Below are positions 10,104 to 55,841 of a DNA stretch of 64,000 nucleotides, one piece after another. The notes under the pieces were generated by a model. It made no database searches and was not told the DNA's origin. It worked only from the letters and a program-made list of their open reading frames with translations. The first letter of the stretch is position 1, and each line of letters starts with the position of its first letter. Source of the stretch: Leucoraja erinacea (taxonomy: Eukaryota); contig NC_073396.1 in NCBI RefSeq assembly GCF_028641065.1, positions 10,664,001 to 10,728,000 on the forward strand, read 5' to 3'. The position numbers were made by a program, and so were the translations under genes.

Positions 10104-10350
10104 CTGGGTAATCTGGTATTTTGTCAGGTGAACCTACTAGCATCCCACGAGTGAATGCCAATGAGCCATTGTTCGGTTCTGGTGTCACTCCCAATAACTT
10201 GCACATCAAGGGATAAGTGTGAATACTGTCAAAGGGCTCTGCCAGGTAAGAATGCTGGAAATCTGGGCCAAATGCTCGGAAAATCATCTTCATGTCCATT
10301 TCTCCATTGTCAAATCCATGATCTCCTTTGTTGAAGTAAATGATGATTCT
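10104..10350 (-). CDS. ENPP7: ENPP7 coding exon 4
   Basis: AG/GT bounded, 247 bp. RIIIYFNKGDHGFDNGEMDMKMIFRAFGPDF...PLMCKLLGVTPEPNNGSL contains the NPP-family GxHG metal ligand and the PNNGS motif. Confidence 0.95.
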
Positions 10351-11250: not shown

Positions 11251-11509
11251 CCTATGACTATGGCAAGGGAGCCACTGCTTTGCTGCTTGGATATTTTGTG
11301 CTGCCTGAAAATATGAATAAAAAGGATAGAAAAGAACAGAAAGAATTGTTGATGGAATCAGCACCCACAGTAATCATTTTTAGTATATTGTTGACAACGC
11401 ACTAAAAGAAATAAACATGTTCTAAAAGAAGATACATTTACATTAGTTAGCCATTCATAGTTTCACTTAATTCCTTATGGAACATATAAAGAATATGTAG
11501 ATTCATAAG

Positions 11510-11702
11510 ATATACACAAAATACTGGAGTAACTCAGTGGGTCAGGCAGCATCTCTAGAGAAAATGGACCGGCATTCTTCGGTCTGAAGAAGGGTCCCAA
11601 ACCGAAACATCACTTATCCATTTTCTCCAGAGATACTGCCTGACCCACTGAGTTGCTCCAACATTTTGCGTCTATATTTGGTATAAACCAGCAACTGCAG
11701 TT
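11510..11702. mobile_element. Short Penelope-derived palindromic repeat (hammerhead-motif family)
   Basis: Inverted arms (acaaaatactggagtaactcagtgggtcaggcagcatctct / agagatactgcctgacccactgagttgctccaacattttg) around ggtctgaagaagggtcccaaaccgaaacatcac. Further copies at ~14165-14610, 16700-16840, 21730-21805, 23010-23102, 23900-24030, 36665-36745, 37370-37445, 37720-37940, 53575-53770 and 55020-55260. Confidence 0.75.
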
Positions 11703-11824
11703 TCTTTTAATTACTGTGTAGATTCATAAGGTTTGTTTATATTTCATTTCTCTCAGCTGCCATACAAATAACTCTCCTTTTTATACCTCAAAATTAAATT
11801 GAAACAAAAGCACTTGCCACTTAC

Positions 11825-13670: not shown

Positions 13671-13864
13671 TGCCCAGGAGACCTGGACGGAAATCTCTGG
13701 AGACTTTGCGCCCCAGCCAAGGTTTCCGTGCGGTTCCCGGAGGTTGCAGGTGGTTGCAGGTAGTAGAAGCAGGGAGGGAGACTGACAAAAACCTCCGGGA
13801 ACCTTGGGTGGGGCGCAAAGTCTCCAAAGGTTTCCGTTCAGGTTTCCTAAGTGGGACAGGGGCA
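13671..13864. mobile_element. Non-autonomous Harbinger-type MITE in ENPP7 intron 1
   Basis: ~60-bp imperfect TIRs. The right end is aagtgggacaggggca (same TIR type as 2088-2395) and the left TIR lacks 11 bp. Flanks are TTA/TAA. Confidence 0.7.
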
Positions 13865-14220
13865 TAAATCAGACTAAACAAAGTGAATTTGATTAAGGGG
13901 AACAATGAGCAAAAATCAGGTCAATTATTCTATAACAAAATCTTCTTTATTTTAAGGAATCCATTCCTGTGTTTCACAACCATAGTAATAAAGGAAAGTG
14001 CTGACAGACCATTTGGCTTGCTCTGAAGGGCACTTGATAAAATATACCCTTTAATCCCATTTTACTGCCTGGAGATCAGAGATTAAAAGCATGATACTTG
14101 TTCACCTAACTTGAGCTGTTAAAAAAAAAGATGATTAGACCATTTTATATTTTGGTAGGAGGGTATTATCTCTGGAGAAAAGGAATAGGTGACGTTTCGG
14201 ATCTAGGCCCTTCTTCAGAA

Positions 14221-14523
14221 CAAGGGGTCACAGTTTAAGAATAAGGGGGAAATCCTTTAGGGCCGAGATGAGGAAAACATTTTTCACACAGAGTGGTGAA
14301 TCTCTGGAATTCCTTGCCACAGAAGGTAGTTGAGGCCAGTTCATTGGCTATATTTAAGAGGGAGTTAGATGTGGCCCTTGTGGCTAAAGGGATCAGGGGG
14401 TATGGAGAGAAGGCAGGTACAGGATACTGAGTTGGATGATCAGCCATGATCATATTGAATGGCGGTGTAGGCTCGAAGGGCCGAATGGCCTACTCCTGCA
14501 CCTATTTTCTATGTTTCTATGTT
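14221..14523 (+). mobile_element. Young CR1 3' fragment inserted into a Penelope-derived palindromic repeat
   Basis: Nearly identical to ~34265-34567; ends in the ttttctatgtttctatgtt tail. Confidence 0.9.
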
Positions 14524-15034
14524 CAGACTCTCGACCCGAAACGTCACTTGTTCCTTTTCACCAGAGATGCTGCCTGACCAGTTGAGTTACTCCAGCTTTT
14601 TGTGTCTATCTTTGAGTTTATTGCCATATGCACAAGTATGCTGAGGCACAGGTACATTGAAAATCTTGCTCGCAGCAGCATTGCAGGCATATGGACAAAT
14701 GCAACGCACAAAAAGATAAACTCTGCAAGATTGTAAAAAGACAGCAAAATCAAGCCATTAGTGCAAAACAAAATTAGAAATCAAGTACATGCTAAACCAA
14801 GTGATGGACCATAGTGTTCCATTGCCGAGTAGGAATAGGTTGTGCATTTTGGTTCAAGAAGCTGAGTTGTAGGAAAGTAGCTGTTCTTGCATTCTGATAC
14901 ATAACTGCTACCAATTAATCTCATTGTAATATATTTCATTCTAAATTGTGTCCACATTCCGTCATGAATAAAACAGTAAATTAGCCACATTGAACAAATT
15001 CATTTAACATTGTAACTTTACTCTGAAATCCCAC

Positions 15035-15485: not shown

Positions 15486-18004
15486 ACAAATTGTACTCTA
15501 TTAAAACATTTCCCGACTTTTGACACACAGTACTAAGTAGTTAAACCTGTATTAAAGGGAAATTATAAACCAGAGTTGCAAGGGGTGTAAAGGGTTTTCT
15601 CTTGGTAATTTCCATACAGTTGTTGAACAGATCAGTGAGAAATTGTTCCCACAGCCTATTAATTTAAGGCAATTCATAACCTATTAATTCTCAAAAAAAT
15701 AGTAGCTATGATCGCTGCAACTAAATATATACGCTATGATTCCGATAGCTGCAACTAAAGCCATTTGATAAATGGATTGCAATCATGGACCATGCAGTAA
15801 ATTATGACACCAACGCTAATCTAATTTCACAGTGCCATTTTGAAATTCTGCATTCTAACCTGGTGCTTGCTTAATCTCTCGGAGCAAGACATGACAATAA
15901 TGCCTGAAGGATTTTTCTGCTGGAGCTATGCAATGTGATAAAAAAAAAATTACAAGTTAGCTTCAGGCTGCCTCCCAATGTTGTCAATGTTAGTTGCTGT
16001 GGTTCTCTGTGATCAGTGGGCTATTGAAAGACATTTGCTGATACAAAACATTGTTATTTTGGCTTCTAGTTATCCCTCAGGTTGGATAGGCTGATGGAGC
16101 TTCCTTTAGCATTTTCTGTGACTGCAAAATGATGGGAGTTGCTGTAGAAAAGGGAGGAGAAAACATGAGTGAAGAGCTCTCAGAAGTCTAACATGCTTTA
16201 AGGAATATTTATCTCACTTCAACAGGAACTGCGGTTCATGGTCTTTGCTTTACAAATGACTGAAAAACAGTGGCCACAACTGCAACATCAGAGCAGGGCA
16301 AGGATCATAATGTTTTTGGGTTTCAAGCTCCGAGCTCCACTTAAGGACTGGGCTAGTACTGGCTTTGACGCTCTTTTTAAACTGTTTTTCCCTCTGATTC
16401 GCCTTCTTTCCCACGAGCATTCGGGTGTAGGTACCATCGAGAGACTTGGAGAGTCCATGCCTCACACCCATACACAACAGCATTGTGTAAATAGGGTTCA
16501 GGCTAGCTTGGTGACTCAAGGTGTCAGTTGAACCTCTTATTTACAGGTAATGACTACCTCATTTGGCAATTGGATGGTTCACAAGGAGCAATAAGAGAAG
16601 CTCTCCAAAGCCCCCAAAAAGGAGTATTGTAGGAGTATTATAAAGAAGAAGCTTAGAAAACAACATGTAATTATGGCAGCGACCAAAGGGACCTAATTAT
16701 AGATACAAAATGCTGGAGTTACTCAGCGGGAAAGGCAGCATCTCTGGAGAGAAGGAATGGGTGACGTTTTGGGTCGAGACCCTTCCTCTGACCTGAAGAG
16801 ATGCTGCCTGTCCCGCCGGGTATTTTGTGTCTATCTTTGGAGTAAATCCATTCCTCCTTACACATGAGGACCTTCCAGTTAATTTCAGCTAAATAGTTGA
16901 AAAATCAAGAAGTTTATATCCTTCCCTACTGCACATTAAGCATAATAGCCTAGTGGGCCACATTGCAAGATATGAGACACATTGAGAAAGAGCTAGGCTG
17001 TAAATGTGGGCCTTAGACATGGGGTGGAGATTGCGAGTATGGTTCTTAGGTAAGCCATCAATTATTTCCAACAAAAGAAGAACCATTTTTTGTGCAACAC
17101 TGATACATTGGAGCTATAAGAGAGGTTGGGCAAACAACAGATACAAGTAGCCACAATGAACGTAGCTTAATCTGGGCCGAGTGCCAATGTGATTTCATCA
17201 TCTATAACCCCGAAGGGGGATCCTTTCGGAAATTGATGTTAATCTGAGTTGCATGAATGATATTTATAATAGCAGCCATTGGAATACTGCCAAATGACGC
17301 GAGGAGTTTGTCTATTTGGCATCCAACGAATGATAGGAAGCTGCCAAAAATACATCAGATCTAATTTTAATCATTTTCTTACTTGATTGTGTTATCTGAT
17401 CCATCCACATGGTCCAATCGTTAAGCAGAACATTTTTAATTAAAATGATAAAATGATACTGCTTCAATTTTGATTGAGAGAGTATTCCCTATATTATAGG
17501 AATGTACTATAGTTTTTGGAATTCTAGGAACAAACACAAGAGTATTCTAAACATGCCACTCAATGTAAACACCTAGTTTACAGCTAGATCAGTGAAATTA
17601 CTCTATTTCCGTGTTCAGCCCATGATGAAATGAGTTGCCCATCTTGCCATTCTTGTACCTATTGCAATGTCTATAAAAAATAAAGTCTTGCTTTGTTGCT
17701 TGTTTGTATTTTTGTTCCTGCTTCAATAAGTTACACAAATAAGTTATTTTGGAGAACCCTTTAGCTGTATTATTGACCAACATGTGCTTTGTGTGTTTTG
17801 CTAATCTTTCATTAATGTAATCCATGAATTGTAGCCTGCACCACCTACCAGATCGTCATTTGTGTGATGACTAGTCAATGCTGATCAACAGTCCCAAATC
17901 TGGACCTGTGCAATGTGATCAACAGCCCAATACATAATATCCTGGATGCATGAACATTTGATTATTCATTTATTGCCCAAAAACATAGACTCCATCAGAT
18001 ATCA

Positions 18005-18261: not shown

Positions 18262-18283
18262 AATATATATATATATATATATA

Positions 18284-21269: not shown

Positions 21270-21730
21270 ACCCATTAGTGAGTCTGGTCCACCCACGAGC
21301 ACAGAAAGGGACAACGGTTCTCTAGCCGATGCGAGGATCCGGACCAAGGCAACGTGTGGAAGCCCTGCAGGAGCATGGGGGCTCGACTGGATCAGGTGCT
21401 ACTCCAACAGACCGAGGGCACGGGCCGGACACGGTCTGCAATTACACAGAGCGGTGGACAATGCCTACAATTTGGCTTGGGCTGGCTGACCCTGCTGCAA
21501 CGCCAAGACAATGGGCCTTTATGGCCAGCTGCACTAATGCAACTTGGACTTTAAAAATGGCGCCAAAACCTGGTGGCTCTTGTATATTGTCCTGTGGACT
21601 CTTTCCATACACGTTGTACTTAATCTAGGGTTATGCTTATGTATAGTAGTACTCTGCTGAACTATATGCAAAACAAGAATTTCATTGCACCTCATTACAT
21701 GTGACAATAAAGAACACATTGAACCTTGAA
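21270..21730 (+). mobile_element. L2-tailed non-autonomous retroelement fragment
   Basis: GC-rich body followed by tttcattgcacctcattacatgtgacaataaag..ttgaaccttgaa, an L2-type 3' end. Confidence 0.45.
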
Positions 21731-22289
21731 GATAGACACAAAACGCCGGAGTAACTCAGCGGGACAGGCAGCATCTCTGCAGAGAAAGAATGGGTGACGT
21801 TTCGGGAAATTCCTTCGTGCACACATTGAACTTGGCTATTCGGACAGATGTCCCAATCTGCCATCTCTACCAACATGAAGGAGAAGGGCACAAAGTAGAT
21901 TAGGAAGACAACCATTTGCAGTTTCAAACTCCCAGTCAAACACCATCCTGCTTTGGAAACATGGCACTGATATATCATGATCTTTCAATTTAAATCCTGG
22001 AATTTCCTCCTCATCCGCACTGTGGGTGTACCAGAAGAACTACAGTAGTTTAAGAAGGGAGCTCACCTCCACCATCTCAAGGGGAAATATATGGGCAATA
22101 ATTAGTAGTCTTGCAAGTGACACTCAGATCCAGAAATATGATTCAAATAAATGCTTGGAGTTTTGAAAAATATGAATAATTGTGTAGATAAGTAGATTTT
22201 TTAAATAACATTAACAATTAGTTGAAATAAATTGCGAACATGTGAAGTACTTTTGGAGTCACAGTCCATTGAACCTTTGTTGCCCCTTT

Positions 22290-22919: not shown

Positions 22920-23068
22920 GTAAAGTTGCACATGCTTCTAAGTCTTGCATGCTCGCACCTCGGAATGCACATCATTGACCAAACCTGTGTTATCGATGCC
23001 ATGAATATAGGCACAAAATGCTGGGAGTAACTCAGCGGGGCAGGCAGCACGTCCGGAGGGAAGGAATG

Positions 23069-23102
23069 GGTGACGTTTCGGGTCGAGACCCTTCTTCAGA
23101 CC
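23069..23102 (-). ncRNA. Minimal type-I hammerhead ribozyme motif (Penelope-associated)
   Basis: Minus strand: GGU-CUGAAGA-A-GGGUC-UC-GACCC-GAA-ACGU-C-ACC. It has the conserved core, helix II, a palindromic helix III and a GGU/ACC helix I. Confidence 0.65.
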
Positions 23103-24039
23103 AGTTTCTGCATTTCCTTCCTACACTCATCGCTGTCATGAACCCAAAAAAAAGGGATTGCGGAAACTATCCATTTCACGCCTATTTGCCGATCCGATAA
23201 ATGTCATTTCTCCCCGCACGTTGAAAGACCAAATTTAAGGGAAAGCCGGTTGGTGCATCAGGCAGTAGCAGTTGCGGAGAGATAAACTGTTAACGATTCG
23301 TGTCGTTTCTGCCCAGTCCCTCTTCGTTATCATCTTGATACAGGGTCATGACCCGACATTTAGTCGATCCTTCCACAAATGCTGCTTGACCAGCTGAGTT
23401 CCACCAACAGTTTGTTTTTACTTTCTGATTCTATTGATGGCTATTATATATCACTGAATACATTTCTAGGTGAAACAGCAATTCGCATTTGCTTCCAATC
23501 CAATGTAGTGCATTTGATGCACCTAAAATTATTTGTTCTTATTTCTGGAGAAATCGAATGCAGAAGGAACTTCCAGGTGCTTGTCTCTTTAATTTTCACC
23601 CCACTCCCTGTCCTGTCCTTGGCATCTTGCACTGATCTGACAAAACCCAACATATTCCAACCAGGCACGTTTACAGCCCGTAAAGCAAAATAGAATTCAA
23701 CAATTTTGGATAGCACTGTCGTTTCAGTCAGTATCAGAAGCTAAAACATTTAGATCATAAATGATAGGTGCACTGGGATTTGAAACAAATTGGTTGAGAA
23801 TTGCATTCATGAATATCTGAAATTGTCCTATAATAAGAGCAGAGGGTGATTAACAGTTATTCTTAAGATTGGAAACCTGTGTTAACAGTGTACCACTGTG
23901 TAGGAAAGAACTGCAGATGCTGGTTTAAATCGAAGGTAGACAAAAAAAAAACGCTGGAGTAACTCAGCGGGTCAAGCGGCATCTCTGGAGAGAAGGAATG
24001 GGTGATGTTTTGGGTCATGAGCTTTTTCAGACTGTACTA

Positions 24040-24660
24040 CAGGTCAGTGCTGGGACCCTTGCAGTTTGCTCGATGCATTCGCAGTCTAGATGTGAATATA
24101 GGAGATATGATCAGTAACTTTGCAAATCGGTAAGTGAGCAAAGTGATATGTAGAGAGTGGTGGTGTTGTGGATAGTGAAGAGGGTAGACATTAGATACAG
24201 AATGATGTTGATGCATTAGTAAGGTAGGTAGAGCAATGGCAGATGGAATTTAATCCTGAAGGACTGTAAGGTGATGCATTTTGGAAGGATTAAAAAAGCT
24301 AGATTGTACGCAATTAAGTATTGATGTATTAAGGCATCTTGGTGTACATGTCTGAGGGATGCCTAAATGCTGCAGCACTGGTAAATTGGTTGAAAATTGC
24401 CTTAATAGATATAGGAGCAGGGAGACTGGTGCAACTATATGTAAAATTGGTTAGACTGCAGTACTGGTCACCATACTACATTACATGGTGATTGCATTGA
24501 AGTATATGCAGGGGAGGTTTGTCAGGTTGTTGCCTGCGATAGAATATTTCAGTGGTGAGGAGTGACATGTTAGAATGAGTGTTTTTCTTGGAGGAGCTAA
24601 GACTGAAGGGGGACCTGTTTGAGATGTATAACATTATGAGCAGTGTAGAGAGAATGGAAG
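24040..24660 (+). mobile_element. Old degenerate CR1 RT fragment
   Basis: ggtcagtgctgggaccc (GSVLGP), gatcagtaactttgca (ISKFA), tggcagatggaatttaatcctga (WQMEFNP). Confidence 0.7.
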
Positions 24661-25260
24661 ATCGAATAGTACAGCACTGGACCAGGCCCTTCGGCCCACA
24701 ATGTCTGCACCAAACATGATGCCAAAATAACCTAATCTCATCAGCCAGAAGAGGACTCATTTAGATGAATAAGATTATGATAGGCTGTGGGCCGAGATGC
24801 TTTTTCGTTTAAGTTCATGACCCAAATCGTGTAACTACCTGAATTTTTAACACATTGTGTAAAGATATTATAGAAATCATACCTGAAACTTGTCGAGAAC
24901 AAAACGTGCACATATTTTTAAAATATCAGAAAAACTTGCAATTTCCCGAGTAGTAATTGTCCAATCAATGCACGTTTGCCATTGGTCAATTGGCATCCGA
25001 CGCAAACACGCACTTTGTTTCATGGTAGCTAGGCAGCGAGCACTCTGGGATCATGGCTGCCTCCTAATTACATCAAACCAATAGCAAGGTTTCGAAGGAA
25101 TAAAGGTATTGGTAACCTTGCTGATAATTTTGTTTGACAATTGATTTATCTTTGTAAAGTTATGATGTGAACTGTTAAATAAAAATGATAAATAACAAAT
25201 GTAGAGCTAGGGTTAGGATTCGTGTCAGTCAGAAGTCGGTCATAAGTCAGTCAGTCTGTC

Positions 25261-25454
25261 GGTCGGACTGTTGGTAGGCTGGTGGATGCTGTGAGGGATC
25301 GGTCGGGCTGTCGGTAGGCCGGTGGATGTTGCGAAGGGTCGATCGGGCTGCCGGGCCACCGGTGAGTGCTGCGAGGGGTCGGTCAGGCTGTCGGGCCAGC
25401 GGTGGGTGCTGCGAGTGGTTGATCGGGCTGTCGGACGACCGGTGTTGCAGCGAG
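25261..25454 (+). repeat. 40-bp GC-rich minisatellite, ~5 diverged units
   Basis: Units such as ggtcgggctgtcggtaggccggtggatgttgcgaagggtc start at 25261, 25301, 25341, 25381 and 25421. Confidence 0.85.
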
Positions 25455-26716
25455 CGAGCGAGTTAACTGATGGAGCTGGCGCTATGGGGGGTGCTGAAGG
25501 CACCCACCATCATCACCACGATGATCCAGAAGGGCATGCTGGCCGAGGTGGACGCGCTGATCGGCCACACGTACGGAGCCCGCAGCCGGTCCCAAAGTGG
25601 CTCGAGCTTCAGCAGTGGGCAGCTCTGGAAGGGGGGTGGGTTAGGGTTAGGCATTTTCCTCTCAGTGGAAGATGCCTTGGCCTTCCCCCAGCCTGGCACT
25701 GCCCCAGTCCCACTATGCTCGTGACCCCCACTCTGCACACTGGCAGTCAGTGGGGTTCAGTAAACGGGGGAACCCACAGGAACTGCCCTCACCTATTAGG
25801 CGGGTTCAGGAGCTGGATCTCTGCGGCAGTCTCATTCAAAACACAATTATATTAATTATATTATTTTTATATAATATAATTATATATAATTACAGTCATA
25901 TTCACATCACACACACATACATGCATACATACATATACATACATACAGGGGTGGAAATCCCGGGGGGGGGGGGGGGCGCCTCGGTTTTGAGAGGTGGGGG
26001 ACGATCCCCCCCATTTTTTGTAATCCGGACTTTAAAACCCGGTGAAATCTCCGCTTTCCGCGAGACAGTGGGGGTGGGACTGCTGATCTAGGGCGCCGAT
26101 TGGACGAGAGAGATGTCGGTCAGCAGGCAATGGGGGCGGGACATGATGATTCAGCGTGATGATTGGAGGCGGGAGTTGTCGGTCAGAGGCGTAAGTAGTG
26201 GGGGTGGGACTGAGGGTAGAGCGCGGTGATTGGAGGAGGGAGACGTGGCACAGACCTGCGCCTCATCCGCAGCCAGGATCTATCCCGGTTCTCCGGCGCT
26301 GTCCCGTCCCCACCCAAGTGCCCCCCCCCCCCCACGCCGGGGGTGGCCAGAGACGTCGGGAGTCAGATGGGGACCTGTACCTCCAGGCCCACAGCCAGTG
26401 CAGAGAAGCAGCGCTGAACCCAGCTCAACTCTGCCTGTCCCGCCAGGTTAACCTACAGCTCTACCTGGACTTAAGGGAAATATGGCCCAGGCTTACAGCC
26501 AGCGCGGAGAAGCAGCGCTGGTGTTCCGTCAGTCCAGGCAGGGCTGTAGGTTAACCCAGCGAGACAGGCAGAGTTGAGCTGCATTTAGCGCTGGATTGAG
26601 CCTCCGAAGCCTCGCGTGTGTGAGTGTGCGCGGCCGCCAAGATATTGTGCTGTCCCCCGGTCCCCTCCATATTTTGATACGATTTCCGTGTATATATATA
26701 TATATATATATTTGTA

Positions 26717-26747
<31 letters not shown>

Positions 26748-27009
26748 ATGTGTGTGTATGTGTATATATGAGCATTGAACACTAGACGGTGCTTACTTTT
26801 TCGATCTTATTTTCTAATTAGCTTAATTAATGTTCATCTTTGGGCACTGACAAGTTATGACTTCCTTCTCAATTATATTTTATCTAAATCTGCAAAATTT
26901 CAAGTAGACATGGGTCACGAAAATTAAATTCTAGACACATTTTTGATGCTCGGCCCACACCCTATGAGCAGTGTAGATAGAATAGAACATTCAATCTACA
27001 CTGCCAGGA

Positions 27010-27700
27010 ATAAAGGCGTAGACTATTTTCTAAATGGGGCGAGAATCCAGAAATCGGAGGTGCAAAGTCTAGCATTTATTTCAAGAGAGCTTGTTTACAA
27101 AAACAGGGATGTAATGTTGAGGCTCTATAAGGCGCTGGTAAGGCCGCATTTGGAATATTGCGAGCAATTTTGGGCACCATATCTGAGGAAGGATGTGCTG
27201 GCACTGGAGAGGGTCCAGAGGAGGTTTACAAGAATGATGCCAGGAATGAGTAGGTTAACCTATGATGAGCGTTTGTTGGCACTGGGCCTGTACTTGCTGG
27301 TGTTTAGAAGATTGAGGGGGATCCTCATTGTAACATACAGAATAATGAAAGGCTTAGATAGAGTAGATGTGGAGTGGATGTTTCCACCAGCGGGGGTGTC
27401 TAGAACTAGAGATCATAGCCTCAGAATTAAAGGATGTTCTTTTAGGAAGAAGATGTGGAGAAATGTCTTTAGTCAGAGGGTGGTGAGTCTATGGAATTCT
27501 TTGCCACAGAAGGCTGTGGAGGCCAAATCAGTGGATATTTTTAAGGCAGAGATGGATAGATTCTTGATTTGTACAGGTCGGAGATTATGGATAGAAGGCA
27601 GAGAAATTGGTTTAGGAGGTGTAGATAGATCAGCCATGATTGAATGGAGGAGTAGACTTGATGGGCCGAATGGCATTCTACTATTCCTTATGACCTTATG
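27010..27700 (+). mobile_element. CR1 LINE 3' portion (RT C-terminus + 3' UTR)
   Basis: YKALVRPHLEYCEQFWAPYLRKDVLALERVQRRFTRM...SRTRDHSL; internal deletion near 27066. Confidence 0.9.
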
Positions 27701-27734
27701 ATAGAATAGTTAAGCATAGGAACAGTCCCATCTA

Positions 27735-27951
27735 CAGTGCCCTCCATAATGTTTGGGACAACGAGCCATCATTTATTCATTTGCCTCTGTACTCCACAAT
27801 TTGAGATACGTAATAGAAAAAAATCACGTGGTTAAAGTACACATTGTCAGATTTTATTAAAGGCCATTTCAATTTCAATTTGTGGCGCACTGAGGCAAAT
27901 AAATAAATGATGGGTCATTATGGGTCATAATAAACATTATGGAGGGCACTG
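27735..27951. mobile_element. Tc1-derived MITE (217 bp)
   Basis: TIRs cagtgccctccataatgttt / aaacattatggagggcactg, TA on both sides, and a further internal inverted match (ccatcatttattcatttgcctc / gaggcaaataaataaatgatgg). Confidence 0.88.
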
Positions 27952-27954
27952 TAT

Positions 27955-28640
27955 AACCATGATCCATATTCCTCAATTTTCTGCATACCAATGTACTTGT
28001 CTAAAAGCCTTGTATTCCATTATCGTATCCCCATCCACCATTACTCATGACAGTGTGTTCCACGCACCCACCATTCCCAATGTTTTTAAAAAAAAAACTT
28101 GCTCTGCACTTCTCCTTTATACTTTGGCCATCTTACCTTAAGCTAATGCTCTCTAGTCTTTGATATTTCTACCCTGCAAGAAAAGTTCTGACATTCTACC
28201 CTATCTATGCCTCTCATAACCTTATATACTTCTATTGGGTTTCCCCTCAACCTTCAGCACTCCAGAGAAAACAATGCAAATCAGTCCAACTTCTCCTTGT
28301 AGCCCTCCAATCCAGGCACATTATAGCTAATCTTTTCTGCAGCCTCTCCAAAGCCTCCACATCCTTTCTAGGAACCAGAACAACATGCAGTGCTCCAAAT
28401 TGTGCCTAACCTATGTATTATAGAGTCGCAACACAACTTCCTGACTCTTATACTCAGTGCTCCAACCAATGAAGAAGCTCAAACATGCCTTCTTTAACCA
28501 CTCCATCAACTCGTATTGCAACTCTGTGGGAACTAAAGTCATTTGTCCCAAGAAGCCATGTATATCAAATACTTTCACCTTTCATTCGACCTCCCAAAGA
28601 GCAACACCTGTTCACATTTGCTCAATTTAAACTCCATAGG
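27955..28640 (-). mobile_element. Old CR1 fragment, minus strand
   Basis: accctatctatgcctctcataaccttatatacttc..., aaccagaacaacatgcagtgctccaaattgtgcctaac (reverse complement of the VRPHLEYC.QFW region). Confidence 0.7.
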
Positions 28641-30518
28641 TAGGATAGAGTAGTTAATGTGAAAATATTCCCCTTAATAGAGATTTAAGATGGGGGACAA
28701 GAGTTGTAAAGGGAATTTGAAGAATTCTGCCACCGTCTGGGTGAAAAAAAGATGTCTGGAATATACTTCCTCAGGAGGTGGTAGTCGCAGGTACTCTTGC
28801 AAAAGGGTTAAAGATTACAGTGAACAGACTAGAATGTTGAGTTGATGTTACAGTCAAACCACCCATGAACTTGTGAGTGTGGAGCAGGTTTGATGACCTA
28901 CTCTTGTTCCTGATTTGCATGCCTGTATGTTATTGACTCATCATCCACGGCCTTTTGTATAAAAAATATTTTCCTAGTTCCTGGTTTCCTTTTGAATGGC
29001 TCCTTATGGAAATCATGTGAAAGAGGAAATGTTTTTTTGTCTATCAACCTTTTAATTCATTTTTGAAATCTTCTTGTCAACCTTTGAGATTTAAGAACAT
29101 GTGAAATTGTTTATGTAACCTGCTATGCTATTTAACTCTTGAGGCCTGTACTGCACTCTTAAAAACAAAACTATCTTGGGGAGATTCCCAGAACTGGAAG
29201 CACTATTTCATTTGCAGCACAATGTTCCCAACTGTAGAATGCAATCAAAAATTACAATCCCTCTCCTATGCACTTAGTTTCCTTGATATAAAGAACAATA
29301 TTCCAATTTTAATTAGTAATCTTTTTATGCATTATACTGCCTTTGATTTGCATGTGAAGTGAAATCTCAACTCTTTTCAATAGAATTCACCTGCCTGAAT
29401 CCAAAATGAACTTCATTTATGGCAATTTAGCCTGGTGCGTGATCCATGTTCTCTGCAACTTCCTGCCCCATCTACAAATTTACTGAGCCTCCTTGCTTAG
29501 TGTTCATGTATACTCTACATGTCTGTATACATGGACTACAAATTGATTTGTTCAGTTTATTGTTGCAGATAGTGAAGAATGAGTACAGATATCAAACAAT
29601 CTGGCATCACTGATATTTCTCCATCTGGAATATGTTCCCTCTGCATCCCATCTTCCAGCATATTACATAGGATTACATTCAATGCAAACCAGCTACTTAA
29701 CGCAACAAGTCCATGGCAGCATTTAGGTTGTACTTGAGTTTCCTTAAAATCCCCCATTCTCTTTTTCACATTTGTCCAGCCTGTCCTTAAATACATCAAA
29801 GCTATTCAATGTAAACGTCTTAGACGATTGCCTGCTATTCCACATTCTGTACAGGAATCAATAGCAAGGATGAACAAATATTAAAAGTTCGCCATTTAAG
29901 CAACATTCTTGTCAACTATTTTTCTGATCCCAAATGCAACTGGATTCGTTCTGGATTACCCTTCCATGGTGACTTTCTCTGGTGACCGCTTGCATGGGCC
30001 ACGGAACCGGGGGGGCTGCAGACCCTCCACGTTTTTTGCCGACATATTGCTTCATAACCCGAAATTATCCGGCCTACAAACGTATTTTTCTCTTCTTCTG
30101 AGGACCTCCAACATCCAGAATCTCAGAACAATCGCACAGTGAGCAAGGCAAAACCATGATCAGCCGTGGCAGAAACCGACTGCCCCCCTCCCCACAAAAC
30201 CCTCCCTCAGAACTGCTGTAGATTTGGGAGCAACAGCAGGAGGAGATTAGCAAGAGATCAGACTGATTGGCTCTAGCCCGAGTGGGAGGATAGAAGTGAG
30301 TTGGTGCCGGGAAAACAGTTGAAAACTGAGGATTTGGTTTGTAAATTGGTAAATTGGGCACTATCAGTCAATTTAAGCAAGACTGCTCTTAGGGAGCGGC
30401 AGTGAGTGAGCGGCATAGTGAGGGAGGTGCCCTGTGAGTAAACTGTGAGTCTTTGGCTCGAGAGTCATCAGAGAGGAGACCACGCAATACGCTTGAGAGT
30501 TAGAGACGAAAGAAGGAG

Positions 30519-31446
30519 ATGTCAGGCAAGCTGATTCAGTGCGATGCTTGCAGTATGTGGGAGGTCAAGGACAACGCTGGTGCCTCTGGCTGCTACAAAT
30601 GCGAGAAGTGCATCCAGGTAGAGCTCCTGAAGGACCGTGTTGGGGAACTGGAGAAGCAAGTGGATGACCTCCGGTTCGTCCGAGAAACAGAGTCGTTCCT
30701 CGACAAGTCCTACAGTAAGATTGTTACACCTAAGGTACTGGAAGAGAGAAGGTGGGAGACAGTGAGAAAGGGAGGGAAGCATGGAATGCCAACGTCCCCG
30801 GGTGTTGTACCTCTTGTGAACAGGTTCACCCACTTAGAAGCTGTCGGGACAGAAGACGTGTTTACACTGAGCGGCGGACTGGCTTGCGATGCGAATAGGG
30901 CTGTTGAGCCAAAACCAAAAAGGCCTAAGGCAGGCAAGGCCATTGTAGTGGGAGACTCCATTGTGAGAGGTACGGACAGGGGTTTCTGCGTCAACAGACG
31001 GGATGCGAGGATGATGTGCTGCCTTCCTGGTGCCAGGATCCAGGATGTCACGGGACAGAGTGCAGAAAATCCTCAAGGGCGAAGGTGAACATTCGGAAGT
31101 GGTAGTGCATGTCGGCACAAACGATGTCGGAAAGAAGGGGATGAATATTCTGCAGCTTGACTTTAGAGAGCTCGGAAAAATGCTGAAAAGCAGGACCTCC
31201 AGGGTTGTTATCTCCGGTTTGCTTCCAGTTCCTCGTGCTGGCGAGAGCAGGAACAGGGAGATACGGGACTTGAACGTGTGGCTGAGGAACTGGTGCACGG
31301 GGCAGGGATTTAGATTCTTAGATCACTGGGATCTGTTTTGGGGTAAGGGGGACCTGTACAAAAGGGACGGATTGCATCTTAACAGGTGTGGGACCAGCAT
31401 TCTGGCAGGCAGGTTTGCCACTGCTACACGCGTGGTTTTAAACTGA
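30519..31446 (+). pseudogene. CR1 ORF1 (zinc finger/leucine zipper + SGNH esterase), one frameshift ~31050
   Basis: CDACSMWE...CEKC, coiled coil LKDRVGELEKQVDDL, IVVGDSIVRG, VVVHVGTND, DGLHLN. Confidence 0.9.
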
Positions 31447-31669
31447 ATAAGGGGGGGTGGGGTGTCGAATGGGATAGTGGTGGATGGAGTTAAAGGGAAA
31501 GGGTTTCTTAAATGTGTGAGCGTAGAGACAGAGGGGTGTGGAATGAGGGTAGAAGCAATAGGTAGCAAGGTGAAAAGTAAAAGTGTCAGGCCGGCAAATC
31601 CAGGGCAAAAATCAAAAAGGGCCACTTTTCAGCATAATAGTATAAGGGGTAAGAGTGTTGTAAAAACAA

Positions 31670-34503
31670 GCCTGAAGGCTTTGTGTCTCAATGCAAGGAG
31701 CATTCGTAATAAGGTGGATGAGTTGAATGTGCAGATAGCTATTAATGACTATGATATAGTTGGGATCACGGAAACATGGCTCCAGGGTGACCAAGGCTGG
31801 GAGCTGAACATCCAGGGATATTCAATATTCAGGAGGGATATACGGAAAGGGAAAGGAGGTGGGGTAGCGTTGCTGGTTAGAGAGCAGATTAACGCAATAG
31901 AAAGGAAGGACATTAGCTTTATGGGTAGAGCTGCGAAACACTAAGGGGCAGAAAACGCTAGTGGGAGTTGTGTATAGGCCACCTAACAGTAGTAGTGGAG
32001 TTGGGGATGGCATCAAACAGGAAATTAGAAATGCGTGCAACAAAGGTAAAACAGTTATAATGGGTGATTTCAATCTACATATAGATTGGGTGAATCAAAT
32101 TGGCAAGGGTGCTGAGGAAGAGGATTTCTTGGAATGTATGCGGGATAGTTTTCTAAACCAACATGTAGAGGAACCAACGAGAGAGCAGGCTATTCTAGAC
32201 TGGGTATCGAGTAATGAGGAAGGGTTAGTTAGCAGTCTTGTTGTGCGAGGCCCCTTGGGCAAGAGTGACCATAATATGGTTGAGTTCTTCATTAGGATGG
32301 AGAGTTACATCGTTAATTCAGAAACAAGGGTCCTGAACTTAAAGAAAGGTAACTTTGAGGGTATGAGACGTGAATTGGCCAAGATAGACTGGCGATTGAT
32401 TCTTAATGGGTTGACGGTGGATATGCAATGGAAGGCATTTAAAGACTGCATGGATGACCTACAACAATTGTTCATCCCAGTTTGGCAAAAAAATAAATCA
32501 AGGAAGGTAGTGCATCCGTGGATAACAAGGGAAATCAGGGATAGTATCAAAACAAAAGATGAAGTGTACAAATTAGCCAGAAAAAGCTGCCTACCAGAGG
32601 ACTGGGAGAAATTCAGAGACCAGCAGAGGAGGACAAAGGGCTTAGGAAAGGGAAGGGCTAATTAGGAAAGGGAAAATAGATTATGAAAGAAAACTGGCAG
32701 GGAACATAAAAACTGACTGCAAAAGCTTTTATAGATATGTGAAGAGAAAAAGATTAGTTAAAACAAATGTAGGTCCCTTGCAGTCAGAAACGGGTGAATT
32801 GATCATGGGGAACAAGGACATGGCAGACCAATTGAATAACTACTTTGGTTCTGTCTTCACTAAGGAAGGCATAAATAATCTGCCGGAAATAGCAGGGGAC
32901 CGGGGGTCAAATGAGATGGGGGAACTGAGTGAAATCCAGGTTAGCCGGGAAGTGGTGTTAGGTAAATTTAATGGATTAAAGGCCGATAAATCCCCAGGGC
33001 CAGATAGGCTGCATCCCAGAGTACTTATGGAAGTACCCCCGGAAATAGTGGATGCATTAGTGATAATTTTTCAAAACACTTTAGATTCTGGAGTAGTTCC
33101 TGAGGATTGGAGGGTAGCTAATGTAAACCCCACTTTTTAAAAAGGGAGGGAGAGAGAAAACAGGGAATTACAGACCAGTTAGTCTAACGTCGGTAGTGGG
33201 GAAACTGCTAGAATCAGTTATTAAAGATGGGATAGCAGCACATTTGGCAAGTGGTGAAATCATTGGACAAAGTCAGCATGGATTTATGAAAGGTAAATCA
33301 TGTCTGACGAATCATATAGAATTTTTCGAGGATGTAACTAGTAGAGTGGAAAAGGGAGAACCAGTGGATGTGTTATATCTGGACTTTCAGAAGGCTTTCG
33401 ACAAGGTCCCACATAAGAGATTAGTATACAAACTTAAAGCACACGGTATTGGGGGTTCAGTGTTGATGTGGATAGAGAACTGGTTGGCAGACAGGAAGCA
33501 AAGAGTAGGAGTGAACGGGTCCTTTTCACAATGGCAGGCAGTGACTAGTGGGGTACTGCAAGGCTCAGTTCTGGGACCCCAGCTATTTACGATATATATT
33601 AATGATTTGGACGAGGGAATTGAAGGCAACATCTCCAAGTTTGCGGATGACACGAAGCTGGGGGGCAGTGTTAGCTGTGAGGAGGATGCTAGGAGGCTGC
33701 AAGGTGACTTGGATAGGCTGGGAGAGTGGGCAAATGCATGGCAGATGCAGTATAATGTGGATAAATGTGAGGTTATCCACTTTGGTGGCAAAAACAGGAA
33801 AGTAGATTATTATCTGAATGGTGGCCGATTAGGAAAGGGGGAGATGCAACGAGACCTGGGTGTCATGGTACACCAGTCATTAAAAGTAGGCATGCAGGTG
33901 CAGCAGGCAGTGAAGAAGGCGAATGGTATGTTAGCATTCATAGCAAAAGGATTTGAGTATAGGAGCAGGGAGGTTCTACTGCAGTTGTACAGGGTCTTGG
34001 TGAGACCACACCTGGAGTATTGCGTACAGTTTTGGTCTCCTAATCTGAGGAAAGACATTCTTGCCATAGAGGGAGTACAGAGAAGGTTCACCAGACTGAT
34101 TCCTGGGATGTCAGGACTTTCATATGAAGAAAGACTGGATAGACTCGGTTTGTACTCGCTAGAATTTAGAAGATTGAGGGGGGATCTTATAGAAACTTAC
34201 AAAATTCTTAAGGGGTTGGACAGGCTAGATGCAGGAAGATTGTTCCCGATGTTGGGGATGTCCAGAACAAGGGGTCATAGTTTAAGGATAAGGGGGAAAT
34301 CTTTTAGGACCGAGATGAGGAAAACTTTTTTTCACACACAGAGTGGTGAATCTCTGGAATTCTCTGCCGCAGAAGGTAGTTGAGGCCAGTTCATTGGCTA
34401 TATTTAAGAGGGAGTTAGATGTGGCCCTTGTGGCTAAAGGGATCAGGGGGTATGGAGAGAAGGCAGGAACAGGATACCGAGTTGGATGATCAGCCATGAT
34501 CAT
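31670..34503 (+). pseudogene. CR1 ORF2 (APE endonuclease + reverse transcriptase), several frameshifts
   Basis: LNARSIRNK, GITETWL, GGGVALLV, YRPP, MGDFN, SDHN, KSPGPD, LDFQKAFDKVPH, QGSVLGP, FADDTKL, VRPHLEYC. Breaks near 31920, 32650, 33128 and 34330. Confidence 0.93.
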
Positions 34504-34796
34504 ATTGAATGGCGGTGCAGGCTCGAAGGGCCGAATGGCCTACTCCTGCACCTATTTTCTATGTTTCTCCCCTCCGCTCAATGGCCAATGACAGCGCGGT
34601 TCACAGCGCGGCTCAATGGCCAATGACAGCGCAGTCGAGATACGAGAGAGAGAGAGAGTTTTTTGTTGTTACTCGACCTCCAAAAACTGGGGGGATAATA
34701 TATCCCCCCCACTTTGAGTTGGCGGATGGAATATATCTCCCATTTTCCCCTCTCTCTATCTCTCGGGGCCGACTCTCCCTCTCTCCGGGGGTCTAA

Positions 34797-35275
34797 GCTG
34801 CCCAAATGAAATATGAGGTGCTGTTCCTCCAATATGTGCTGGCCTCCGTCTGACAGTGGAGGAGGCTCAGGACAGAAAAGTCAACATGGGGGGGGGGAGT
34901 TAGTGTTTAGCAACTGGAAGATCAGGTGGGTTTAGACAGACTGAGCGGAGGTGTTCAGCGAAACTATCGCTGAGCCTGCACTTCATCTCACCGATGTAAA
35001 GGAGCCCACACCTGGAACAGCGGATATGGTAAATGAGGTTGGAGGAAGTGCAAGTGAACCTCTGCCCCAAAAAGATTGTTGGGGTCCTAGGACTGAGTCG
35101 AGGGAGGAGGTTTAGGGACAGGTGTTGCATCTCCTACGGTTGCAGGGGAAAGTACCTGGGACGGGTTGGTTTGGGTGGGAAGGGGTCAGTTAACCAGGGA
35201 GTTGTGGTGGGAATAGTCTCGTGGAAAGGGGTGGAGATTGGAAGATGTGGCTAGTGGTGAGATTCCATTGGAGGC
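34797..35275 (-). mobile_element. Penelope-like element fragment with GIY-YIG endonuclease
   Basis: ORF 34900-35130: QRFTCTSSNLIYHIRCSRCGLLYIGEMKCRLSDSFAEHLRSV (GIY-YIG with CxxC), followed downstream by EEQHLIFHLGSL. Confidence 0.88.
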
Positions 35276-35744
35276 GGAGGTTCACATACAATTTTCCAGT
35301 TTTTGGGTGCTACCCTTGAATCTATATTTTTGGAAGGTTGTAGCCATAGTCTGTATTGTTCCTTCCATTCCAACATGAGCCTAGAATGCATCCTATCTCA
35401 ACTGGGTGATGGGTCCTTTTTAAATACAGCTAGCCCATGTAGTACCTCTTTTTATTCATTTTCAGTTGCATCTTCCTTGACAGGAGGTTTTACATTTCCT
35501 TGGTGAATATTGATGTGAAGTACAAAGCATGTCTTGTGTCTCCATAAGCAAATTTATTTTGGTTTATTTTGGCCCCCTCTCTTCTGTTGCAACCCCTTTG
35601 TTATGCATATGTCTGGAATATTTTTGCTTTTTATGTGGAAATAAATTTATTCTGATCTCTTGAGCCATCTGAATATTTTGTTTACCTCTAATTACATTTG
35701 GTAATTGTATACAAAGCAATAACACATTTTATTTATTTCTGTAG

Positions 35745-35804: not shown

Positions 35805-38800
35805 GTAAGTAAAAGAGGTTCTTAGCTGATGGATAATAATGAATTATATTCATTTTGGATGATGTTCAAGTGACAAAAACAAATTGAAATCCAGAGCAAA
35901 GCTGTGTTTGTAGCTGTCTAAATTAATACTACTGATTGTTAATATGAGGTTCTAATTCTCACTGCCGTTTTGAAAATTAGACCATGAATACATCTGCCTA
36001 AGCAAGAACCATCTTGTGTGTAATTTTTGTGAGGTCCTTTTAAAATAGCTTCCTATCCTACCCAGTACTTGCCCATATAGACAGGTTGATCAGCTCCCAG
36101 GCAGTAAATCCATCAACCAAGGGACATATTTGGATGTTCTTATATGTTCTTCGGCAAATGGAAGATGGGGAATAATAGGCTGTGACTTGGGGTGGGGGAA
36201 ATTAGGGTCAACAGGAAGTCCTTATTCGGGGCCAGATTCGTTTTGAAATGGAACTATAGCAGAAGAAAATTGGGTAAGAAATTTAGGGACTTGAATAGCT
36301 CTGGGGTCCTCTGTGTTGTCATGGGAAAATGTGATCATGAGCAATGTGAGAAATAGTACATTCCTTCTTGAAAATTCAATAATTGCACTACTTTCTACCC
36401 TTCCTTAAGCTGCAGACATTTGTTATGGTATGATTCTAGAGATAGAGAATTTCTTTATTGTTGCAGAATAGCCAATATAACTGGAGTGAAGCATAATGGG
36501 GCCTTCTTCTTCACTTGAGGTTTACATTTGGCTCCAGTGAGATTTAATGGATAGCATTCAGGAATGGAACTTGTGGCTGATTTGGTCTTCCTGGTATAGG
36601 CAATTACCTATTTGACAAAAGTTTCTTGACGTTTAAACAGTTTCACAGAACTCTGAGGTGTACGGTCTCTACCCAAAACGTCACCCATTCCTTCTCTCCA
36701 GAGATGTTGCCTGTCATGCTGATTTACTCCAGCTTTTTGTGTCATTCTTCAAAAAACTGAATCTCTTTGTAAACACAGAATTTTGTATAAAGGGAGCTTT
36801 TGGGATAAAGCATTTAATTCTTAGCATTCTTTGTCAGTGCTAAGCTTTGTTGTGATGGTGTGGCCAATTGCCGTGTACAACTCCCTTTATTCCTCCACAG
36901 TGACATATGTCTAAAGCCATAATTTTAAAAGATCACTTCCTACTACACCAGCATGAAGTTCCATCCCACTCACTCTCTCTTTTCCACAGTCATTGCACTT
37001 CAGGTAAGAATTATTCTAGTCACTGTGCAACAGCATGGTTAGATTCCCCTCTTATTCTGGAGTGATCCTGTCATCTGCTTCATTTAATTATTCTATTGTG
37101 CACACTTATGAGAGCATTATTTCCGTTACATTTTGTTTTTTCATTTCTGTTCGATTTTAACACTTTTTTTCACCTACTTTCTACAGCAGTATTAATAATT
37201 TTCTTGAATTGTTGATATTAGTTTTTTAACTTCATCCCACCAAGAACTTTTGGCTTTGCATTTCCTTGTCTTAGGCTTATTTTCTATTTTGTCCCATGTT
37301 TTATTTGAACAATTCTGTCTTTGACTGGTTTCATGACTGCAGATGCTTGAAATAGTCAGCATGTTTAAGAAAGAACTGCAGATCCTGGAAAAATCGAAGG
37401 TAGACAAAAATGCTGGAGAATCTCAACGGGTGAGGCAGCATCTCCGAAGATAGAAATAGATTTAATATTTCAAGTTGATGATCCTTCATATGCTGGAAGT
37501 TCATCAATTTGATATCTAGACCTTTTTTCCTCAAGGATGCTTCCTGACCTGCGAGTAGCTCCAATATTTTCTCCCTTTTTAGTTACTAATTGTAAATGCC
37601 CTGGGACTCACTAAATGTCAGAGGAGGACTCTTTGCAATGATAACTTCATCCATCAAAAATTACTCTTCAATATCATTGTGAAAGTGGAATTCTTGGAGA
37701 TAAAGCCACTTTTTGTTTTGTGTGGGAAGGTACTGCAGATGCTGGTTTAAACCGAAGATGGACACAAAAAGTTGGAGTAACTCAGCGCGTCAGACAGCTT
37801 CTCTGGTGAAAAGGAGAAGGTGACTGTTCGGGTCGAGCCCCTTCTTCAGACTGAGCAGTCTAAAGAAGGGCCTCAACCTGAAATGTCACCTATTTATTTT
37901 TTCCAGCCTGTGGAGTTACTCTAGCTTTTTGTGTCTATCTCCACTATTTGTTCTGCAGTCTGAATCATAAAGGAGTAAAATACCCATGCCGTACCCATTT
38001 CATTAAGAAATGTCAGTGGTTTCAGAACAGAAATCTTGGGAACATCTATGAACACAATACTGCCATTTTCTGCTTCTGTTGAATTAGAAAGAAAAAAGCT
38101 ATTCTTGGCTTATTAGTTAATCCTTGTGAGATCAAATTAACTTCCAAAATTCTATAGGGTGGATATCAAAGCTGAAGTGTTAGGGCTGAGGTCATCCGAG
38201 TAACCCAAGACTCCAGCAACTGATGTATTAAAAAAATATATATATCAGCAAGGATGACAATTAAATTCCTTTAAGAATGTAATATTGGTTTTCCTGGAAT
38301 CACTGTTTGAGTCCTGGTCATGTTTGGGATGCTGTAACATGCAACTTGCAGTATTTCCTGTTTACTATTCATTATGGTTATGATCCTTTAATCTGGTTGT
38401 TTAATGGTTGCTTGTTGATGCCTAGAAGATTTTGTGGTTAACTAGCAAGGCCAGCATTTATTTTGCAATCCAGGTTGCCTTAAGCCATTGCAGTTCCTAC
38501 GAGGAAGGTAGCCTTGTAAGAACTCTTTAGAGATTAGAGGATTTTGGTCGCGCAGAATGGGTTGGGAGCATTGAAGGAATATCATCGTCTGAAGGACAGC
38601 AATGATTTATAATTGTGGCTTATCGTCAACATCTCAGAGACAATTATGTATAGGTAATTAAGTATAGGTGACAAGTACTTGACCCTTAAACAAGGACCTC
38701 ACATTCAAATCTTTTTGCAATGAGATAGGGACTATGAAATTTAACCGCTTGTATTTATTTTGTATGTAACATTTTAGATCGTGAAGAGTTTTATACGTTT

Positions 38801-53160: not shown

Positions 53161-55841
53161 AAAGATAATTCTTCTTGAGCTGTTGATGACAAGATGCAAG
53201 GGATTAACATTCTCATAATAATTGTCACTTTCAAAAATTTAATTGCGCAATAACATTCTAATAGAATACCATGTTATAACTAAATCTAATGGCTATGATG
53301 GGATTTAATTGAACAAAATTGTTATGTTTGCAATTTTGTAGCTAGTATTTCATGTAATTTTGAACATTTTAACATTCACAATAACACTTGGGGTGGCATC
53401 TTGTGTAAAGTTAGAAAAAAAAAATGCATCTCTAATAATCCAGTGACAGACAGAGAAATATAGTGCCATTTTTACAAAATTATATTGCACCAGCTTTTTA
53501 TGTCCAGTCTTTAAATTGTTGAATCCTGATAAATGCTTTACTGATTTGCCAAGGGAGATGATAATGCCTGTGTGTGGAACAAGGAACTGCAGATGTTGGT
53601 TTACAGAAAAAAAACCTCAAAGTGGCACAGCCAGTCAGGCGGCATCCCTGGAGAACGTGAATAGATAATGTTTTGGGTTGGGTCTGAAGAAAGGACATGT
53701 CCTGAAACATAATTTATCCACGTTCTCCAGGGATGCTGCCTGACCTGCTGAATAAATGCAACACTTTGTGTCTTTTTTTATATAACGCCTCTTGGCATGT
53801 TTATGTGTACGTTTGAGTGTAAATGGGAAGAGGAAGTTTATCTATGGATCAAGATTACGCTTGGATAAAGGAGCCTCTCTTAAAATATTTGAATAAACTC
53901 TAATTTTTGAACCCCACGTCAAAAAGTGAGGGCAGCGTTTTGCTTTATACTACCCCAGTGTTTTTTTTTTTGGAAAATAGGAATTTTTAATTTCACATAG
54001 TTCAAGACTTCTGAATTTTGCATATTTTTGGAATTCCAATAAATAAGCTGAAAATGTGTTTTTTTTTTATTTAAAACATGAAGAGGTGTGTAAGTGCGAG
54101 GAAAGATTGCTGAATAGGGTGAGACAGCCCATGTACATTGAGTCTGACCTGTTGATACTTGAGAGAGTGACTAATTGGATTGAAAGTGAGTTGATTTTAT
54201 TGTATAAATCAGAGCACGGGAATGAGTGTTTTATTACTTTACACTGTTCATGAGACTTCAGGAGCTTTAAGTTGCAGATCTGTGGTGACATTAACGAGGA
54301 TATTGCATCCAATAAAGGTCCTGTGAAAGACTTTCTGAAGTTTGTACTTTTCTGTTTGTTAGATGAAATTCGGCACTATTCCACTGTTGTTTCCTCTGCA
54401 TTCATGTAACAATGTTGGTACAACAATACAAATAATTGACCAACAATGGTGAATTAAATATTCTGAAGAGGTGGATAAAATTGAAATAGAGCTGGGACAG
54501 CCGTGGTTTTAAGGAATGGGATAAAGGCAGTACAGAAACTTAGCTGAGTAAATTGTGGGATCGGTGTGGGTGGAGCGAGGTACAGAAAATATTGCTGAGA
54601 GTTGTATATCAGACAAATAACAGTCAAGGATGTAGGGCATAGTATCATTTGGGAAACTACAGACGCATGCAACAAGGGTAATGAAATCATTATGAGGGAC
54701 TTTCATTTTCGTATGGCCCAGGCAAACTGAATTTTCAATAAAACTGATGGATGATTTTTAAGAGTTGGCTTTCTACATCTGTTGAGGAACCAATGGGTTA
54801 TTTTAAGTGTGCAAATGAGAAGGTTTTAATAGCGTCATTATGAGACCTTGCGGTAACAGTGAGGGTATTATGACAGAATTTTATATAGCAGTGATTTGGT
54901 CCAATCTGAAGCCAGTCTTAATGCTAAATAAAGCAAGCTGCAAAGATATGACGCGTCAATTGGCTTTGATAAACTGGGGAAACTACAGTAACGGGTATCG
55001 CAGTTAATTAGAGAAACGAGGAACAACAGATGTTGGAATCTCGAACAAAACAAGGTCCTTGAGTAACTCAGTGTGTCAGGCAGCATCTGTGGAGGGAATG
55101 GACAGGTAACAGTTTGATTCGGGACTGTTCGTCAGACTGATTACAGGCTGGATGTGGCAGCTTCGGAGAGGGTGCAGAATAGGCTTAGCGGGATGCTGCC
55201 TGGATGAAGAAGGGCCTGACCCAAACATCACCTATCCATTACCTTCCCAGATGCTGCCTTTCTCAATAATGTGGGATAGATCCCATCAGGTCCAGGGGAT
55301 TTATCCACCTGAATGCTCTAGAAAAGACCCAACACCACCTTCATAATTTCAAAATGTCTTGGCATATTAATATACCTCCACACTGATCTCACTATCCTCT
55401 CTTCGTCTTGGTGAATACTGAGGGAATGTACCCTTCCTACAATCTCCAAGCATAAATCCCTCTGCTATCTTTGAATGACCCTATCCTCTCCCTAGTTACC
55501 CGTTTCTTCCTAATTTATGTATAAAAAGCAATGTGATTCTTTATAATTGTATTTGTGAATGACATTTCATGGCCCCTTCTGATCGACCAATTACTGTGCT
55601 TGAGTTCTTTACTGCTCTCTTTGTCTTCCTCAAAATCCTTGTCTGATTTAATTTCCAAATTCTTATGTATGCTTCCTTTTCCTTTTTGACCAAATTTGCA
55701 TTATCTTCTTATCAAAGGTTCCCTCATTTTGCCATACTTGCCTCTCCTGGAACATATCAGCTCTGAACTCTGATAAGTTGGTCGTTAAATGACACCTGCA
55801 TGTCAGTTGTGTATTTACCTAATAAAGCTGCTCCCAAAAGG

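Follow-up and report, generated by a model that had tools for sequence, protein, structure and literature searches.

A dispersed, decaying skate repeat family with a minimal hammerhead motif, very probably the pLTR end of a Penelope-like element

A short sequence in the first intron of GID4 in the skate Leucoraja erinacea resembles a hammerhead ribozyme on the antisense strand, which raises the question of whether it acts on RNA of the host gene or is the remnant of a mobile element. The window, that is, the whole 64,000-nucleotide stretch analysed (NC_073396.1, positions 10,664,001 to 10,728,000 of the forward strand), was used for all coordinates below. The assignment of the site to GID4 intron 1, made earlier from the letters alone, was confirmed: exon 2 matches the GID4 protein in PDB (E=1.4e-6), and intron 1 begins at position 22921. 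With exon 1 by itself, neither PDB nor Pfam returned a match, and the later exons were placed by motifs that we take to be those of GID4. The motif lies about 150-180 nt into the intron. The same intron also contains a near full-length, frameshifted CR1-type LINE (30500-34568, plus strand) with an esterase-like ORF1, an AP endonuclease and a reverse transcriptase.

22921..35744, plus strand: GID4 intron 1 (host context)
23069..23102, minus strand: only intact minimal type I hammerhead in the window, by descriptor match and consensus match (C3 at 23099; cleavage predicted after 23072)

The minus strand of 23069-23102 has exactly the letters that the sequence-only reading gave, and the hammerhead motif is real. 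A strict minimal-hammerhead descriptor applied to both strands of the 64-kb window returned one match, with C17 at 23072, and a match to the same descriptor occurred in 1 of 300 block-wise dinucleotide shuffles of the window. With a relaxed descriptor, three matches were obtained versus a null mean of 0.17. The motif agrees at every defined position with the published consensus for the minimal hammerheads of Penelope-like elements (PLEs), namely CUGANGA, the extra base after A9, helix II with G10.1-C11.1, GAAA, the palindromic 15.2/16.2 pair, UH and a helix I of at least 2 bp. Helix II had been described as 5 bp long; folding instead gives 4 bp closed by a 4-nt loop, not a 2-nt loop. The Rfam search that had been proposed as a check was run, and no hammerhead model matched at E<=10 in either the whole window or a 251-nt stretch. 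The hammerhead motif in the skate repeat is real but ordinary for PLEs.

The element carrying the motif had been located at 23010..23102. The element is larger (about 23003-23128) and includes an inverted copy of the family tail past the core.

23003..23102, minus strand: inverted tail-less arm of the focal element (profile search)
23100..23128, plus strand: opposite arm of the focal element, of which only the 3' tail is left (22/28 match to the tail of another copy)
22992..23005, plus strand: left target-site duplication (TSD) of the focal element (12/14, null fraction 0.02; its final bases overlap the arm end)
23129..23142, plus strand: right TSD of the focal element

The third helix I pair of the focal copy sits at the junction of the two arms and may be contributed by the tail of the opposite arm.

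A profile search (E<=1e-4) detected 19 arms in the window, which form 12 elements (nine two-armed and three single-armed) summing to 1,947 bp, about 3% of the bases. The motif had been said to recur in about ten short inverted-repeat elements. The repeat was indeed found at every coordinate cited, and the pair at 37820-37890 is head-to-head as described, but a whole hammerhead is present in only 1 of the 19 arms, at 23099-23069, the one place where all features of the PLE minimal hammerhead occur. The elements other than the focal one are as follows.

11507..11716: two-armed element, tail on the right arm, 14/14 TSD, ACGU decayed to ACAU
14168..14613: two-armed element, centre split by the 3' fragment of a CR1-type LINE (14216-14520)
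16697..16862: two-armed element, right arm with a partial tail, core mutated
21725..21820: two-armed element, right arm reduced to the final ~13 nt of the tail, CUGA box absent, 11/11 TSD
23342..23420, plus strand: degenerate single arm without core boxes
23897..24034, minus strand: tailed single arm, G8 and G12 of the core mutated, weak 7/8 TSD
36664..36751, plus strand: single arm beginning in helix II, without tail
37362..37582: old two-armed element, left arm tailed, palindromic junction
37719..37940: head-to-head pair, left arm tailed, mutated core in each arm, 11/12 TSD
53571..53781: two-armed member of a divergent subfamily; helix II carries two compensatory changes, the palindrome of helix III is gone, and the TSD is weak (8/9)
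55019..55260: old two-armed element with a 60-nt scrambled spacer

Several observations accompany these elements. The family tail occurs by itself at 44281-44310 (plus strand, 20/28), with no adjoining arm. The LINE fragment at 14216-14520 is 95% identical to 34263-34568, and there is a possible 6-bp duplication at its insertion in the 14168 element. A type I phosphodiesterase (ENPP-like) gene has exons at 9985-12541 on the minus strand, and the 11507 element is situated between two of these. An arm at 37520 (plus strand) that seemed to begin at the cleavage site was dropped as a candidate; its alignment to the partner arm continues back as far as about 37488.

Counted from the core, the unit reaches its short 3' end after about 97 nt, and certain arms add a tail of 30-35 nt. 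A tail was present on exactly one arm in all seven two-armed elements with both 3' ends preserved, the partial tails of two of them (16697 and 21725) being read by eye; in the remaining two, one arm has lost its 3' end. The distance from C3 to the end was 94-97 nt in four tail-less arms (82 in one with a deletion) and 131-135 nt in three tailed arms (117 in one old copy), with three start points off by 1 nt. Clear TSDs of 11-14 bp flank 4 of the 12 elements (14/14, 11/11, 11/12 and 12/14; null fractions of 0-0.02 from 500 random pairs), the TSD at 53571 is suggestive, and those of the seven other elements are indistinguishable from chance. Whether the arms of one element are each other's closest relatives gave a mixed result, the partner being best or tied in one case of four.

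Short inverted-repeat elements carrying TSDs could be MITE-like DNA transposons, whose terminal repeats would be hammerhead-like by chance or capture. We regard this as very unlikely. The arms are unequal, the tail is one-sided, three elements are single-armed, both the TSD length (11-14 bp) and the junction positions vary, and the hammerhead motif is rare in shuffles (1 of 300). The MITE reading is largely refuted by this asymmetry.

DNA transposons and other repeats are found elsewhere in the window. A Tc1/mariner element at 18278-19900 contains a transposase frame (18667-19527) and has inverted repeats of 218 bp (96%). An open frame of 449 aa at 58569-59918 (plus strand) encodes a DDE_Tnp_4 transposase, presumably Harbinger-like, and a 38-bp palindrome lies at 58450-58487. 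Other hairpin or MITE-like elements occur at 13676-13848, 26409-26593, 27733-27953 and 7193-7498, with a convincing hammerhead core in none of the four. A CUGAUGA box at 104-118 (plus strand) immediately precedes a CR1 tail at 120, and its 3' half was not found; it may be due to chance or to a shortened second family and was not counted.

The arms also share a sharp 5' boundary, where the common sequence ends abruptly 2-4 nt upstream of the ribozyme core. Eleven arms reach the CUGA box; of these, 9/11 agree at positions -1 and -2, 6/11 at -3 and -4, and mostly 3-5/11 further upstream. None of the arms in the window starts at the cleavage site, and no shared upstream sequence was detected among 42 upstream segments of ORFs from outside the window, although F, L, S and P are frequent in a few of them. 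So sharp an edge would not be expected if a long RNA had been truncated at random from its 5' end. The edge could reflect a transcription start, short master copies or arrest of reverse transcription at the ribozyme. Four arms carry CAGT at this edge, which may resemble an initiator. In D. virilis, the published start is further upstream, with an intron that ends at helix I, so that a splice boundary is a further possibility. Taken with the lack of arms that begin at the cleavage site, the sharp edge suggests that uncut RNA with a fixed 5' end was copied; the fixed boundary is also compatible with short master copies acting as a non-autonomous family.

These boundaries bear on the term "retrozyme-like" in the sequence-only reading. 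A retrozyme would be a non-autonomous element that spreads by reverse transcription of circles, which its ribozyme cuts from multimeric RNA. The skate family has a type I hammerhead motif, no ORF and a high copy number, and animal retrozymes, with monomers being common, have been argued to stem from pLTRs (bioRxiv 10.64898/2026.07.22.740005). Retrozymes are, however, defined as tandem repeats with a hammerhead per unit (PMC7229834; bioRxiv 10.64898/2026.07.22.740005). No head-to-tail array of the repeat was found among the 18 tandem rows for the window, and since this defining feature fails, the family is not classed as a retrozyme. In addition, the unit is only 100-135 nt long, its hammerhead is minimal rather than canonical, it neither begins nor ends at the cleavage site, and inversion with a one-sided tail fits PLE priming. 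A retrozyme origin is considered unlikely.

The conservation of the hammerhead was compared with that of the rest of the repeat. Core identity was 123/146 and body identity 905/1135 (p=0.22), so that the core is no better conserved than the body in this rough test, in which two rows were misaligned at the 5' end. The CpG containing G12 has become CA or TG in 8 of 16 arms, and that of helix III (ACGU) has decayed to CA or TG in 7 of 16. The family decays neutrally.

Covariation in helix II had been put forward for the family. The double change at 53684 is real, but the signal hangs on that one copy, and the example near 23343 fails: it keeps an identical stem and differs only in the loop, and therefore shows no covariation. 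Among the eight arms with both core halves there are three double changes, two in the 53684 copy and one in an otherwise broken helix at 55135. The covariation score of this set was reached by 5 of 500 shuffles; when the 53684 copy was left out, it was reached by 64 of 500, and a control slid by +1 scored higher. A 13-row alignment gave 1 of 500, a result that was set aside because non-homologous flank was included. The double change at 53684 may mark an older functional subfamily, as judged from one copy. Repair of a DNA quasi-palindrome could equally produce paired changes in helix II.

The copy in GID4 could still be an active ribozyme that was retained near the promoter and cleaves antisense RNA there. 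It is the sole intact motif, it lies about 150-180 nt inside intron 1, and its isolated 34-mer is predicted to fold into helices I and II as a hammerhead scaffold, with a helix II probability of 0.80. However, this probability is predicted to fall to 0.06 when nine more 3' bases are added, the core being buried in a hairpin, and to 0.002 in the whole element. For a dimer of the focal copy, the double-hammerhead fold was calculated at -10.7 kcal/mol, whereas the best dimer fold reached -22.5 kcal/mol; arm-arm pairing amounted to -95 to -106 kcal/mol in the three long two-armed elements that were folded. All of these values are thermodynamic predictions that ignore protein assistance, and on them the focal copy is predicted to misfold. 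The strict descriptor found no intact hammerhead in the window that could serve as a partner in cis, and the nearest arms on the same strand have broken or missing cores. The focal copy differs from the majority sequence by only 9%, and its intactness therefore requires no selection. In published work, minimal PLE hammerhead motifs were inactive as monomers in vitro. Because the copy is predicted to misfold, has no intact partner in cis and belongs to a family in neutral decay, the proposed cutting of GID4 antisense RNA found no support. We consider such a role highly improbable; the copy in the GID4 intron is most likely inert and intact only through having few mutations.

The identity of a possible autonomous partner was examined next to these data. 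A Penelope GIY-YIG fragment had been noted at 34797-35275, and its presence was confirmed; it is frameshifted and matches reverse transcriptase and endonuclease proteins.

34788..35300, minus strand: broken Neptune-type PLE ORF fragment with Cys linker and GIY-YIG, cut before the stop codon; candidate autonomous partner

In this fragment the C-terminal GIY-YIG is preceded by a Cys Zn-finger linker, which is a feature of Neptune, the linker being common to Nematis as well. Pfam did not match the fragment itself and matched 7 of its 14 homologues, weakly. No repeat arm adjoins the fragment, and no repeat joined to the 3' end of a PLE ORF in pLTR order was seen among the sequences examined. Translations of the repeat were recognised in 78 database ORFs (14 in a first set and 64 more later), the weakest of which may be false members. 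An antisense arm lies upstream in 17 and downstream in 3 of the 78, compared with none of 78 in a reversed control. P0018 alone among them has an arm and tail with endonuclease sequence immediately downstream, in a different frame (E=5e-9), an arrangement possibly due to chance. A BLAST search of the repeat against phages and plasmids gave no match, nor did two scans for stray host DNA in bacterial and archaeal genomes. With an ORF cut before its stop codon, no adjoining arm, one possibly fortuitous case among 78 and empty DNA scans, the link between the repeat and a candidate Neptune-type autonomous element is graded only as likely.

Named proteins with a translation of the repeat come from L. 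erinacea (three) and Rhinoraja longicauda (one). The repeat translation is contained in P0023, P0025, P0027 and P0028, which are NCBI skate models for fermitin 1, a beta-arrestin-1-like protein, CHD1L and a sulfate transporter; its presence there is exonisation or an annotation artefact. At 11581-11709 and 37715-37855, one frame stays open from the hammerhead through the tail, interrupted by a single variable stop. This frame could hold the start of an ORF, as is the case in other PLEs; it matched no long PLE protein, and the repeat was absent from 21 long PLE proteins, including their N-termini.

The observed set of features comprises a unit of about 100 nt with an optional tail of 30-35 nt, head-to-head arms, TSDs, a hammerhead at the 5' edge of the unit and neutral decay. 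PLE insertions are described as having an inverted 5'-truncated copy, a usually one-ended tail of 30-40 bp and TSDs, along with solo pLTRs and palindromes at the head-to-head junctions (PMC3846280; bioRxiv 2021.04.23.441226). The consensus match and the insertion anatomy thus support both the Penelope connection and the reading as a minimal hammerhead that were proposed at the outset. We consider it probable that each element is a short insertion derived from the terminal-repeat (pLTR) end of a PLE, itself probably of the Neptune type, and that these insertions are decaying in the skate genome. Besides the failure to find the repeat joined to a PLE ORF among the sequences examined, it speaks against this interpretation that 8 of the 12 elements lack a clear TSD and that the sharp 5' boundary is at odds with random 5' truncation.

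A mechanism can be proposed from work on a PLE of Anolis, whose protein nicks and extends both strands in vitro; two internal start sites of reverse transcription define its tail, uncut RNA is the main substrate, and the protein assists the hammerhead (PMC11167929). We infer that this biochemistry carries over to the skate family. A PLE protein would make staggered nicks that give rise to the TSD, and reverse transcription would be primed on each strand from one of two internal sites in the RNA, which lie about 35 nt from each other, so that one arm would be tailed and the other tail-less. The two cDNAs would extend toward the 5' end of the RNA and be joined head-to-head at microhomologies in or beside the hammerhead. 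The RNA templates would be uncut, because the arms retain the core and none begins at the scissile bond. They could stem from a complete PLE transcript, of which they would be the 5' end, or from a short master copy. The hammerhead would be a passenger from the source element, where it probably worked as a dimer or with the element's protein. Lunse et al. have reportedly worked on PLE hammerhead dimers.

A more specific, tentative version, to which we give limited credence, is that the family is a distinct transcription unit of 100-135 nt that starts 2-4 nt upstream of the core and travels uncut, like a SINE, with the help of a Neptune PLE; the conserved flank on its 3' side would pair with the core and hold the ribozyme off until protein binds. 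If so, the many two-armed copies would preserve the traces of a PLE dimer that primed on both strands, and a single genome would suffice to map where priming occurred, where the RNA began and what the ribozyme did. In so abundant a family, the sharp 5' boundary, the two fixed 3' ends and the TSD-bounded inversions also provide a large natural data set on whether cut RNA serves as a template.

The skate family is very probably the pLTR end of a PLE with a minimal hammerhead. No description of it was found in the openly accessible literature searched; one chondrichthyan genome is analysed in bioRxiv 10.64898/2026.07.22.740005, and the supplements of that study may include the family. Cartilaginous fish were absent from the supplement of PMC4209133 in the rows examined and in a term search. 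The present results add a skate repeat family, which makes up about 3% of the window and is missed by Rfam, to the known occurrences of the motif, and they caution against taking such copies for host ribozymes.

The skate motif shares its consensus and helix sizes with the minimal hammerheads of PLEs (PMC4209133), the closest in layout being a Neptune example from Acropora digitifera with a 3-bp helix I, a 4-bp helix II and a 4-nt loop; the published motifs are likewise mostly single and dispersed, and opposite-strand pairs 100-700 bp apart have already been noted. Penelope of Adineta vaga (PMC3846280; Craig et al., bioRxiv 2021.04.23.441226) has in common with the skate elements the head-to-head inversion, the tail on one arm, the TSD, the junction palindromes and the solo pLTRs, whereas the skate elements have no ORF, are only 80-240 bp long and have 5' ends that cluster at the hammerhead. 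Metazoan non-LTR retrozymes (PMC7229834; bioRxiv 10.64898/2026.07.22.740005) are also non-coding, have a type I hammerhead and are likely PLE-dependent, but they consist of tandem units of 150-450 bp, whereas the skate family is dispersed and inverted and carries a minimal motif. Poseidon of Anolis (PAc; Frangieh et al. 2024, PMC11167929) belongs to another PLE clade, and its ORF starts inside the hammerhead, whereas the skate repeat matched none of the 21 long PLE proteins; the two share a hammerhead located about 100-135 nt upstream of two tail-defining start sites of reverse transcription, as well as uncut RNA as the template, which in the skate family is the probable one.
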